In this document: positions 7,401 to 10,400 of the stretch, in pieces
How positions within the stretch are numbered: the first letter of the stretch is position 1
Layout of the letters: the number at the start of each line of letters is the position of its first letter
Source: Scenedesmus sp. PABB004
Lineage: Eukaryota
DNA: 64,000 nt
Assembly: GCA_014905635.1 (NCBI GenBank)
Contig: CM026548.1
Location: 1,240,001-1,304,000 of the forward strand
Direction of reading: 5' to 3'
Position numbers and translations under genes: made by a program
The notes under the pieces: model-generated
Told to the model about the DNA's origin: nothing
Databases searched by the model: none
The model's input: only the letters and a program-made list of their open reading frames with translations

Positions 7401-10400
7401 CTGCACAACCCCCAAACCCTAAACCCTGACCCCCGCCGCCCCGCCGCGGCCAGGTGCGGGCGCGACATCCCGGAGGTCATGATGATGCTGATCCCCGAGG
7501 CCTGGCAGAACGACGCCCTCATGCCCCAGGCACGACGGGGCGCGGGGCGGGGCGGGGCGGGAGGGCGCGGGGCAGGGGGGGGGAGCAGGCCCGAACGCGC
7601 GCGCGGACCCCGCGCTCTCTCCCCTCACCAGCCCGCCTGCGCCTCCCCTCGCCCGCCCCTCCTCCCTCAACCCTCCCGCGCGCCCTGGTACCACCCCCGT
7701 CCCTGACGACTGCACTACCCCGTCACCACCCCTCCTGCTCCCCCCCCCAAACCCTTGAACCCCGACCCGCTAAACCGCAGGAGAAGAAGGACTTTTACCG
7801 CTACCACAGCGCCATCATGGAGCCCTGGGACGGCCCCGCGCTCGTGACCTTCACCGACGGCCGCTACCTCGGCGCGACGCTCGACCGCAACGGCCTGCGC
7901 CCGGGGCGCTACTACATCACGCACAGCGGTGCGCGACGCGCGGGGCTCAGGGGCTCAGGGGTTTAGGGGGTTGAAGGGGGGCGGCTGTGGCCCGCCGTCC
8001 CCGCCTGCGCGCGCTGTACGCCGCCCCCAACCCGCGCCCCTACACCCCGCCGCCCCTCACCCCCGCCGCCCCCCGCGCCGCGCAGGGCGCGTGATCATGG
8101 CGAGCGAGGTGGGCGTGGTGGACGTGCCGGCCGAGGACGTCGCGCGCAAGGGGCGGCTGATGCCGGGGAACATCTTCCTCCTCGACTTTGACGAGCACCG
8201 CGTCGTCGAGGACAAGGAGGTGCGTTACATAACATGTTTGGATGTTATGTTTTATTTTTTTTGGCGTGGTTGGGAAGCCGCGCGCCTGCGGATGCGGCGG
8301 CGCGGGGCGCGGCGGCGGCGCCGCCCGCGCCGCCGCTCCGTGCCCTCCCCTCACGCACACGCGCGCGCACGCACGCGCCACGCGCGCCCACGCGCGCGCA
8401 GATGAAGGCGCGCTACGCGAGCCGCCGCCCCTACGCCGAGTGGCTCGCCACCAACAGCGTGCGCATCGCCGACGTTGTCGCGACCGCGCCCACGGGTGCG
8501 CCCGCGCGCCCGCGCGGCCACGCCGCCGCGCCCGCGCCTCGCTGAGGCCCCGCCGCGGCAGCGCGCGCCCGCGCGCCCCCGCCGCCGCGCCTCACCCGCC
8601 TGCGCCCCGCCTGCACCCCGCCGCCCCGCCCGGGCCTCGCGCGCGCGCGCAGCGATGGGCCCGCAGCTGCTTGGCGTGCCCGCCGTCAGCACCGTCAACA
8701 AGCCCGCCAACGGCAACGGCAACGGCGGCGGCAACGGCAACGGCAACGGCGCCGGCGCGCTCAAGGAGGAGGCGGCGCTCATCGCCATCCTGCAGCCGCT
8801 CAAGGCCTTCGGGTGCGCGCGCCTCGGCGGGCCCGGGGTTTAGGGGTTTGGAGGGGCCCGCGGGCGCGCTGCCGCCGCGGCCGCCGCTGCGCCCCGCGCT
8901 CGACCCTGCCGCTGCGCTGCCCCCTGCTGAAACCGGTCCCCGCGCCCCGCCCCAAACCCTGCACCCCCGCGCGCCGCCAGGTACACGCGCGAGGCGCTGG
9001 AGATGATCATGCTGCCCATGGCGGCGTCGGCGGCCGAGGCGCTCGGCAGCATGGGCAACGACGCCGCGCTCGCGGCGATGAGCCGGCGCCCGCGGCAGCC
9101 GTTCGAGTACTTCAAGCAGCTCTTCGCCCAGGCGCGTGCGCTGGGGCGCGGGGCTCAGGGTCTTGAGCGAGGCGAGGGTCGAGATACCTCGACCCTATTT
9201 GTGGGGGCGCGGGCTCGCGCCCCCCAGCCCTCAACCCTGAACCCCTGCGGCGCCGCCCCGACCCCTAAACCCCGCCGCGCAGGTGACCAACCCCGCGATC
9301 GACCCCTTCCGCGAGGCGGTCGTCACGAGCCTGCGCTGCTTCGTGGGCCCCGAGGGCGACATCACGACCACCGCGCCCGGCCACGCCGCGCGGCTGGAGC
9401 TCGCGCAGCCGGTGCTCACGCTGCAGGAGGCCCAGGCCATGAAGGTGCTCAACCTCAAGGGCTGGAAGACCAAGGTGCGCCGCACGCGCGACGCGTTGTT
9501 TTGTTGTTACTTTTTGTTTGTTACGTTCTTGACCGGTCAAAGCGCAGCGCGGCGTGCGGCGCCCCGGTCCGGGCGGCCCGGCCCGTCGCCGCCGGCCCGT
9601 GGCGCCGCTGTCAGTCGCGCCGCGCCGCGCAGCGCCGCGGTCGGATGCGGGCGGCGCGCCCCCGAGCGCCGCTGCCGTTCTGTCTGTCACCAGCAACAGC
9701 GCAGTCGATGTGGTCTAGTGCCTGTGATGGCACTGGGGTTCGTCGGCTGCGTCGCTGCTGGTAGTGCCAGACGCAAGCGCCGGGCGCGTCTCCTAGGATG
9801 TCGATTGCGCGCCTGCGCGGTCAGCACCCCTAGGAGATGCGCCCGGCGTGTTGCGTCTGCTGCGGCGGGGCGTGTGCCTCCCCCCTCACGAGAATGCCCA
9901 GCAGCTGCCTGCCTCGGCTTTCCCGTGCAGGAGGGAGGCACGCGCCCCCGTCCCGTCCCCACACAGCTTGCCCTCCCCCGCGCCAGCGCCCCCGCTCCCT
10001 TTTCGCGCGCGCGCTCGCCCCCTCAACACGCCCTCCCACCCCCCCCCCTCTTGTCTCTCCCTCCCGCCCGCAGGTCATCGACATCACCTTTGACCGCGAC
10101 GCCGGCCCCGACGGCCTCCTGCCCGCGCTGCAGGTGCGCGCCCGCCCGCCCGCCCGCCAGCGCGCGCACACACCCGTCTCCCGCCCCTCTCGCCTGCCCG
10201 CCCACACTCGCCCACCCCGCCCCCGCCCGCTAAACCCCGCCCCGCCCCGCCCGCTAAACCCCGCAGGACGTGTGTGCCCAGGCGGCGGCCGCGATCAGCG
10301 CCGGCTACAGCTTCATCGTGCTCAGCGACCGCGCGTTCGGCCCGGGGCGCGTGCCGCTGCCCAGCCTGCTCGCGACGGGCGCGGTGCACCACCACCTGGT

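Follow-up and report, generated by a model that had tools for sequence, protein, structure and literature searches.

What identifies a microRNA precursor in plants and algae is a set of discrete small-RNA reads of 20-22 nt, microRNA and star, whose 3' ends overhang by 2 nt, in an organism that has Dicer-like and Argonaute proteins. Human MADE1/miR-548 is an example of palindromic miniature transposons from which microRNA genes arise; such transposons form multi-copy families with target-site duplications. In Chlamydomonas, 9 of the 18 high-confidence microRNAs are derived from introns and depend on DCL3, according to the part of the study drawn on here (Valli 2016, PMC4817775). Template switching makes complete hairpins in one event, with enrichment in introns, and few of these hairpins turn into microRNA genes, as given in an excerpt of a second study (Monttinen 2023, PMC10710096). 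Our search found no literature on green algae that treats hairpins in nuclear introns or introns with a G/C skew, which does not prove that there is none.

The locus described here was found in a 64-kb stretch of DNA, called the window below. One intron of its glutamate synthase gene is predicted to carry three strong RNA hairpins side by side. Their geometry fits that of a microRNA precursor, and their context makes them look more like palindromic DNA that is tolerated within introns. All hairpin and intron folds reported are predictions.

The host gene and its hairpin trio

The gene encodes a glutamate synthase of the NADH type (GOGAT) and was assigned by tblastn and Pfam. The Dunaliella protein P0015, with its Pyr_redox and Fer4_20 domains, aligns in 38 colinear tblastn segments (7223-23118), and pieces of the Pfam domain GATase_2 are found in the 5' part of the gene (5287-6744). 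Some protein matches are closer than the one from Dunaliella, with 75-79% identity. The gene model was made by exon chaining, which left some introns unspliced and lost exons in the region from 6.6 to 7.9 kb. This region was left out of the intron table, which contains 45 GOGAT introns, 12 of them with approximate bounds.

The features of the gene and of the intron that hosts the trio are as follows.

5287..23118, + strand: gene for NADH-type GOGAT with over 45 small exons, which hosts the hairpins
9475..10073, + strand: intron hosting the trio, 599 nt, GT..AG, placed by exon translation, spliced model and direct reading
9494..9541, + strand: T/G-rich stretch close to the 5' end of the intron, from direct reading, odd within DNA of 75-83% GC
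9689..9762, + strand: hairpin 1, 74 nt, 30 pairs (6 G-U), 62% GC, from fold and inverted-repeat search
9768..9859, + strand: hairpin 2, 92 nt, 41 pairs (5 G-U), 70% GC, from fold and inverted-repeat search
9867..9948, + strand: hairpin 3, 82 nt, 33 pairs (1 G-U), 73% GC, from fold and inverted-repeat search
9949..10073, + strand: C-rich 3' module of the intron, 125 nt, 61% C, beginning directly after hairpin 3

The exon upstream of this intron ends at 9474, and a mini-exon follows downstream (10074-10133). With 599 nt, the intron is the longest of the 45 tabulated, in line with the initial annotation, which had called it the longest at about 600 nt. Between the 5' splice site and the trio there are 214 nt, and another 125 nt separate the trio from the 3' splice site. 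No tRNA was found in 9000-10600.

The initial annotation had described three back-to-back hairpins, and both the inverted-repeat search and folding recovered all of them. The arms found by the repeat search are 34 nt with 71% complementarity in hairpin 1 (9689-9722/9729-9762), 20 nt with 95% in hairpin 2 (9778-9797/9829-9848) and 20 nt with 90% in hairpin 3 (9867-9886/9929-9948). The annotated lengths of 74-92 nt stand, and two details changed: the gaps between the listed stems are 5 and 7 nt instead of 4-5 nt, and the minimum free energy (MFE) structure gives hairpin 1 six G-U pairs instead of five.

On the plus strand, the 260 nt of the trio fold into three separate hairpins with an MFE of -192.3 kcal/mol, compared to a shuffle mean of -123.1 (z -13.5), and none of 200 shuffles folds equally well. 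The minus strand reaches -176.9 (z -12.9). When the whole 599-nt intron is folded, all three stems are kept in both the MFE and the centroid structure, with mean pair probabilities of 0.98, 0.98 and 0.92 for hairpins 1, 2 and 3. The trio is the dominant predicted fold of the intron, one of the points on which the annotation had made its proposal depend.

Its remarks on composition also hold. The GC content of 62, 70 and 73% is below the 80% of hairpin-free intron DNA. The 21-mers of the trio have 10 near matches (three mismatches or fewer) elsewhere in the 64-kb window, compared to 36 to 2366 for five control stretches, which agrees with the greater complexity attributed to them.

Unique hairpins at a shared intron position

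The trio is part of a larger set. In total, 13 strong hairpins were found in 9 of the 45 tabulated GOGAT introns, namely the trio and ten sister hairpins in eight other introns. In the fold scores behind this set, minus-strand z values are rough, having been computed from plus-strand shuffles. The following lines give the sister hairpins and two further elements.

5416-5504, + strand: weaker repeat directly ahead of the next hairpin, same intron
5512..5615, + strand: sister hairpin, 34 perfect pairs, intron 5398-5718
11020..11118, + strand: sister hairpin, intron 10979-11244
11910..11998, + strand: sister hairpin, 24 perfect outer pairs, intron 11736-12110
13741..13869, + strand: sister hairpin, 5' arm G/A-rich, 3' arm C-rich, intron about 13632-14031
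15435..15516, + strand: sister hairpin, sequence relative (tandem duplicate) of the next one
15571..15659, + strand: sister hairpin, tandem relative of the previous one, with stretches 93-97% identical
17357..17473, + strand: sister hairpin, 44 of 50 ungapped pairs, intron 17225-17597
18199..18274, + strand: sister hairpin, 12 nt ahead of the next one, intron 18087-18490
18287..18373, + strand: sister hairpin, 26 perfect outer pairs, 66% GC, same intron
20135..20224, + strand: sister hairpin, near-perfect 90-nt palindrome with a 4-nt loop, intron 20031-20426
39700..39770, unstranded: the one similar hairpin of the 64 kb that lies beyond GOGAT, in a long stretch that looks non-coding

In the window, nine ungapped Watson-Crick repeats reach 24 matches or more, compared to an average of 0.1 over 20 local shuffles. 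Eight of these nine long repeats are inside GOGAT, which makes up 28% of the window (P about 2.5e-4). All 13 GOGAT hairpins are intronic and the reading frame is never interrupted. They range from 74 to 129 nt, with mismatches of several kinds scattered along the arms. Adjacent groups recur (5416/5512, 9689/9768/9867, 15435/15571 and 18199/18287).

The hairpins are unique in sequence. When the 14 were compared with each other, none gave a cross-match at E 0.01 or better, the adjacent tandem pair excepted, and no second copy of any hairpin was found in the other 46 kb of the window. The 3' arms resemble the intron background in composition (C 0.43 and G 0.35, compared to C 0.44 and G 0.36), with the 5' arms as their mirror image, and arm sequence diversity is between the values of introns and exons. 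The polarity of the arms, with a G-rich 5' arm, is not significant (Wilcoxon p 0.089). As for a signature of the RNA strand, the ratio of G-U to A-C mismatches was 44:24 (p 0.02) with bounds derived from the plus strand, and this was lost with strand-symmetric bounds (37:23, p 0.09). The excess is therefore not counted as a strand signature, and no clear RNA-strand bias is seen.

The introns themselves are built in two parts. The GC skew is +0.22 to +0.28 in deciles 1-3 and drops to -0.46 and -0.54 in deciles 8-9, the 5' part being G-richer than the 3' part in 44 of the 45 tabulated introns. These introns are therefore predicted to fold back from composition alone: pairs bridging the two halves number 34.1 on average, compared to 19.9 in whole-intron shuffles (p 7e-5), with no excess over shuffles that preserve the halves (34.1 vs 36.1), so the fold-back is only compositional. 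Some introns have a GT-rich 5' part and a (CA)n or (CACT)n 3' part. A likely branch motif was also noted, with its complement confined to the 5' halves of introns.

The hairpins are located at the point where the introns switch from G-rich to C-rich. From the end of the last hairpin to the 3' splice site, the distances are 103, 125, 126, 112, 162, 112, 124, 117 and 202 nt, so that seven of the nine fall in one 24-nt range (103-126 nt), a result reached by 6 of 20000 simulations of uniform placement. Introns without hairpins have a median of 186.5 nt (range 110-313 nt), and those with hairpins a median of 396 nt. With the hairpins subtracted, the latter median is 271 nt (range 167-409), which still exceeds that of the hairpin-less introns (p 0.002).

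Origin and possible function

We tentatively favour local generation of inverted repeats in a permissive mid-intron zone, where they would fold on themselves and be removed with the intron. The most plausible source would be replication template switching or fold-back copying. Extra sequence would be tolerated in one part of the intron, the switch point from the G-rich 5' module to the C-rich 3' module. With introns that would already fold back through their composition, a self-pairing insert at the apex would collapse into a stem, and the effective distance from the 5' splice site to the branch region would therefore not increase. Inserts of this kind may survive, accumulate next to each other and leave with the intron, and a dedicated microRNA function would be unnecessary.

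For the mutational origin and the filter of tolerance, we infer from several observations. The hairpins are unique except for one tandem pair, which argues for a local origin and not for a dispersed repeat family. Adjacent groups would be the expected product of a narrow permissive zone, and the arms, intron-like on the 3' side and mirrored on the 5' side, fit an inverted copying of native sequence. Against this reading, the GC content of the trio (62-73%) and its complexity are unlike a simple copying of the local low-complexity sequence, and a uniform neutral process does not explain the concentration in one gene. The longer hairpin-subtracted introns, the non-significant arm polarity and the purely compositional nature of the fold-back also count against it.

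A less probable alternative, and one we consider unlikely, is that the hairpins are substrates of a Dicer-like enzyme, which would release small interfering or microRNA-like RNAs either from the pre-mRNA or from the intron after splicing, with the trio as the polycistronic precursor proposed in the initial annotation. Each hairpin of the trio is predicted to form a duplex of about 21 nt with few mismatches and no large bulges, as single hairpins of microRNA precursors do. The stems have 30-41 pairs, the best 21-nt windows leave 2, 0 and 1 nt unpaired in hairpins 1, 2 and 3, the folding index is 1.02-1.20 and the pair probabilities are 0.92-0.98. The plus strand of the trio folds 15 kcal/mol more stably than the minus strand, the trio holds 12 G-U against 6 A-C mismatches, and its sequence is unique and complex. 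The intron-derived, DCL3-dependent microRNAs of Chlamydomonas provide a precedent, as far as the excerpt describes them (Valli 2016, PMC4817775). If the alga possesses a nuclear Dicer-like enzyme, these stems would be natural substrates.

The context, however, leans against a dedicated microRNA cluster. The best Rfam match of the trio, MIR1437, scores 33.1 bits against a gathering score of 168, and the other GOGAT hairpins draw equally generic sub-threshold microRNA matches. In the whole window, no Rfam family (microRNA, snoRNA or ribozyme) reaches its gathering threshold, and no RNA-interference gene is among the Pfam matches. None of the 10 near matches to the trio 21-mers in the window is outstanding, and no target-like site was seen; the G-U excess is not significant. 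Moreover, when a single housekeeping gene holds 13 hairpins, all in a set place within its introns, they look structural and not like independent regulatory genes. As one part of a set of about 13 similar mid-intron hairpins, the trio resembles palindromic DNA that introns tolerate more than it does a dedicated cluster. Against a snoRNA cluster stand the length and near-perfect pairing of the stems, in which no boxes were recognised, and the silence of Rfam; this reading was rejected.

A combined picture, in which the introns of this extremely GC-rich alga fold back by pairing a G-rich head with a C-rich tail (about 105-125 nt), long unique palindromes gather at the permissive apex and the GOGAT hairpins with the trio are diced into small RNAs, seems improbable to us. 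If they were diced, a nitrogen-assimilation gene would double as a multi-hairpin host of small RNAs, with an output that follows its own transcription.

It is equally doubtful that the hairpins were selected as splicing aids, compacting introns that exceed the usual 110-313 nt and keeping the splice sites close. Hairpins are present in all of the top eight introns of the table by length (373-599 nt) and in nine of the top eleven, but most of the extra length is the hairpins themselves, so the argument from length is partly circular, and two hairpin introns (321 and 266 nt) overlap the hairpin-less range. The position at the apex of the compositional fold-back and the GT-rich 5' parts with (CA)n or (CACT)n 3' parts in some introns would suit such a role, as would the documented bridging structures that enforce splice-site pairing (part of Lin 2016, PMC4691745). 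Nevertheless, bridging pairs are not above composition-matched shuffles. Related sequences also speak against this role. Two loci were confirmed among 599 pattern matches in metagenomes, both Dunaliella-like: most of their exons share 92-97% identity with the Dunaliella protein, and the distance to the present gene is too great for introns to be aligned. In the Dunaliella-like orthologous gene, no hairpins of the GOGAT kind were found across 11.4 kb, and the intron orthologous to that of the trio has about 216 nt without such a hairpin.

It is very unlikely that the hairpins are individual miniature inverted-repeat transposable elements, or remnants of them, inserted into introns. Near-palindromic units of 74-129 nt, a GC content below that of the surrounding DNA, the insertion-like lengthening of introns and the one tandem pair would agree with it. 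On the other hand, within the window and the tandem pair aside, the hairpins show no cross-matches or second copies, as described above, and have no terminal motif in common. In a visual check, the flanks of the 14 hairpins revealed neither matching direct repeats nor a clear target-site duplication, and a fixed intron position is not expected from transposition. Lastly, amplification or assembly artefacts, which some library types can give as near-perfect palindromic chimeras, are hardly credible given the scattered arm mismatches of several kinds, the regular positions and the location of 13 of 13 GOGAT hairpins in introns, none breaking the reading frame.

Implications and comparison with known systems

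On the favoured reading, nine introns of one gene with palindromes at the same point of a two-part intron would be a clean natural record of where introns tolerate extra sequence. They may further illustrate the build-up of preformed hairpins from which new microRNAs can be drawn. Were small RNAs made from the trio, this unicellular alga would have a clustered intronic locus of a rare, microRNA-like kind, and small-RNA output would be tied to a central gene of nitrogen assimilation. Furthermore, the two-part design of the introns, together with the likely branch motif and the restriction of its complement to the 5' halves, suggests structure-assisted intron definition outside vertebrates.

Mirtrons are also intronic hairpins that could feed a small-RNA pathway, but their ends are the splice sites; the trio was ruled out as a mirtron since 214 nt separate it from the 5' splice site and 125 nt from the 3' one. 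Elements of the MADE1/miR-548 type are likewise near-palindromic, about 80 nt long and able to fold like microRNA hairpins, whereas the hairpins here differ from each other within the window.

The teleost (GT)n/(AC)n introns, as presented in part of Lin et al. 2016 (PMC4691745), have complementary opposite ends and a predicted approximation of splice sites. Likewise, 44 of the 45 GOGAT introns have complementary sequence classes at opposite ends, and some have GT-rich heads with CA or CACT repeat tails. In contrast to the teleost introns, the complementarity here is mostly G-rich/C-rich and purely compositional, and the strong hairpins are at the apex and not at the boundaries.

The intron microRNA precursors of Chlamydomonas reinhardtii, which depend on DCL3 (PMC4817775, in excerpt), share a green-alga-like host and stable sense-strand stem-loops in introns of protein-coding genes, far from the splice sites. 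They differ from the GOGAT hairpins, known from sequence alone, which have no sequence homology to them and number 13 in one gene at a regular position.

Finally, the template-switch hairpins described by Monttinen, Frilander and Loytynoja (2023, PMC10710096, in excerpt) are also complete, near-perfect, of unique sequence and enriched in introns, mostly without microRNA function. They were inferred in primates by ancestral reconstruction, whereas those of GOGAT are putative cases. What the GOGAT hairpins add to the part of that description drawn on here is their density in a single gene and their fixed mid-intron position.

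Hairpins in the glutamate synthase introns

The initial annotation described three consecutive pre-miRNA-like hairpins in one intron of the NADH-type glutamate synthase (GOGAT) gene, and these hairpins are real. The intron covers 599 nt (9475-10073, with GT and AG ends). The 260-nt stretch with the trio folds at a minimum free energy of -192.3 kcal/mol, whereas 200 dinucleotide shuffles of it average -123.1 ± 5.1 (z -13.5; 0 of 200 as good as the native sequence). In the predicted fold of the whole intron the three stems persist, with mean pair probabilities of 0.98, 0.98 and 0.92. 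As also proposed, the trio has lower GC (62-73%, against 80% in hairpin-free intron DNA) and is much less repetitive than that DNA. The reverse strand of the same stretch folds well too (-176.9, z -12.9), so the trio represents, first of all, DNA inverted repeats. Just past the 5' splice site there is a T/G-rich run of ~48 nt (9494-9541), which is very unusual in a window with 75-83% GC throughout.

Local folding and an inverted-repeat search revealed ten further hairpins within GOGAT introns, 76-129 nt in length. Outside this gene, the window has only one comparable strong and complex hairpin, with 28 of 34 ungapped pairs.

Hairpins in the window
9689-9762 (+), trio, hairpin 1
9768-9859 (+), trio, hairpin 2
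9867-9948 (+), trio, hairpin 3
5512-5615, sister hairpin, GOGAT intron
11020-11118, sister hairpin, GOGAT intron
11910-11998, sister hairpin, GOGAT intron
13741-13869, sister hairpin, GOGAT intron
15435-15516, sister hairpin, GOGAT intron
15571-15659, sister hairpin, GOGAT intron
17357-17473, sister hairpin, GOGAT intron
18199-18274, sister hairpin, GOGAT intron
18287-18373, sister hairpin, GOGAT intron
20135-20224, sister hairpin, GOGAT intron
39700-39770, outside GOGAT, within a 1.2-kb non-coding-like stretch with plus-strand genes on either side

Of ungapped Watson-Crick repeats whose loop is at most 60 nt, the window contains 9 with at least 24 matches (20 locally shuffled windows average 0.1) and 16 with at least 20 matches (1.5 in local shuffles). 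GOGAT, with 28% of the window, holds 8 of the former 9 (binomial P ~2.5e-4).

We tabulated 45 GOGAT introns between 5398 and 23019, 33 with solved bounds and 12 approximate, excluding 6.6-7.9 kb. Nine of them bear hairpins. These are 266-599 nt long (median 396), or 167-409 nt (median 271) once the hairpins are subtracted, against 110-313 nt (median 186.5) for introns without hairpins. The distance from the end of the last hairpin to the 3' splice site is 103, 125, 126, 112, 162, 112, 124, 117 and 202 nt, with seven of the nine inside a single 24-nt window, a result matched by 6 of 20000 simulations of uniform placement.

Host gene and intron architecture

The exon directly upstream of the trio's intron translates into a glutamate synthase central-domain peptide. 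Its closest named relatives are NADH-GOGATs from the green-algal genera Monoraphidium and Dunaliella (66-67% identity), with metagenome proteins reaching 75-79%. A tblastn search with the Dunaliella GOGAT protein P0015 gave 38 colinear plus-strand segments at 7223-23118, and Pfam places the amidotransferase domain upstream, at 5287-6744; the gene thus spans at least 5.3-23.1 kb, with more than 45 small exons. Clear exons at 10893-10982, 13455-13640, 14066-14180 and 14400-14500, which contain the conserved GAKPGEGG... segment, have no counterpart in P0015, whose annotation thus appears to be missing exons. Intron 9132-9282 appears to begin with GC instead of GT (CAG|GCGCGT...CAG), since the protein continues exactly from one side to the other.

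Other genes in the window, by Pfam, are an LHC-like protein, an RCC1 protein, NDUFA5, ATP-citrate lyase, a SNF2/RING helicase and an ammonium transporter, a gene content that identifies the organism as a photosynthetic, green-alga-like eukaryote. The ammonium transporter (55237-58478, minus strand) is ~32 kb from GOGAT (5287-23118, plus strand); both are nitrogen-assimilation genes, and their proximity may be a coincidence.

GOGAT introns have two parts: a 5' part rich in G (often in G and T), and a tail of ~100-120 nt rich in C (often in C and A), at the limit of which the hairpins start. Mean GC skew over deciles 1-10 is +0.22, +0.28, +0.23, +0.12, -0.04, -0.19, -0.31, -0.46, -0.54 and -0.38, and in 44 of 45 introns the 5' part exceeds the 3' part in G-richness. 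By crude intron calls, neighbouring genes have the same polarity, though weaker (minus strand, 12 of 13 introns; plus strand, 16 of 27). In 15 of 45 GOGAT introns there is a CTAAAC motif (often CTAAACCCC), with 24 of 26 occurrences in the 3' half. Most are 13-60 nt upstream of the 3' splice site (for example at 10200-10266, 11190-11244 and 20330-20426), so CTAAAC is probably a motif of the branch region. GTTTAG, the complement of CTAAAC, was confined to 5' halves (10 of 10), as was the telomere-like TTAGGG (10 of 10). Predicted pairs bridging the halves number 34.1, against 19.9 in whole-intron shuffles (p 7e-5), and are not above half-preserving shuffles (36.1), so the predicted fold-back comes from composition and not from specific sequence.

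Origin of the hairpins

The trio and its ten sisters are most economically explained as palindromic DNA generated in place. Their 3' arms match ordinary intron DNA in composition and their 5' arms are the mirror of it, which is consistent with inverted copying of native sequence, although per-hairpin arm polarity was not significant (p 0.089). Template switching is described as a one-step origin of whole hairpins, intron-enriched and with a small fraction becoming microRNA genes (PMC10710096), and, between imperfect repeat arms, as able to homogenise and extend them (PMC13100816). Since the intron would fold back anyway, an insert that pairs with itself at its apex would matter little to the spliceosome, and the trio, which lies there, might have been kept for that reason. 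This account does not explain why the hairpins are concentrated in one gene, nor why the trio is lower in GC and more complex.

A scan of metagenomes for GOGAT relatives found two Dunaliella-like loci. No comparable hairpin was present across 11.4 kb of the gene in L002, where three candidates had 22-25 pairs each (best z -3.0); in the short fragment L001 the same small stem scored -6.2. The intron orthologous to that of the trio is ~216 nt. The hairpins are thus lineage-specific additions.

That the trio encodes microRNA precursors, as the initial reading of a miRNA-cluster-like polycistron implies, is possible but rather unlikely. The predicted stems have the structure expected of such precursors, and half of the high-confidence microRNAs of Chlamydomonas are reported as intron-derived (PMC4817775). 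Rfam gave no matches at gathering level in the whole window, and ARAGORN no tRNA in 9000-10600. At relaxed thresholds the trio matches various microRNA models from plants and animals, with scores far under the cut-off (best 33 bits against 168); other GOGAT hairpins have similar matches to other unrelated families, so these indicate a hairpin only.

Arm mismatches were counted as a test for selection at the RNA level. With strand-symmetric arm bounds, 37 mismatches would be G-U in the sense RNA and 23 would be A-C (p 0.09), with 12 and 6 in the trio alone; bounds derived from the plus strand give 44:24 (p 0.02), a biased count.

A selected role of the hairpins in splicing is doubtful, and mobile elements are improbable. 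The hairpin sequences differ from each other, except for the adjacent tandem pair at 15.4-15.7 kb, and inspection showed neither termini in common nor direct repeats in the flanks, which within these 64 kb argues against a transposon family. The tandem pair (15435-15659) has a period of ~136 nt, with stretches 93-97% identical, and local duplication can be a route by which GOGAT hairpins spread. An artefact is hardly credible.

Comparison with known systems

In two hairpin introns the 3' tails consist of a long microsatellite, (CACT)n at 18391-18485 and (CA)n at 15700-15771, opposite GT-rich 5' parts. This arrangement is reminiscent of the (GT)n/(AC)n introns of teleosts, where bridging structures that enforce splice-site pairing are described (PMC4691745). 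In keyword searches of open-access text, neither series of mid-intron hairpins nor fold-back introns with a G/C skew turned up for green algae. Inverted-repeat hairpins within introns are already known as a kind, to which the present case adds a new example that is unusually orderly.
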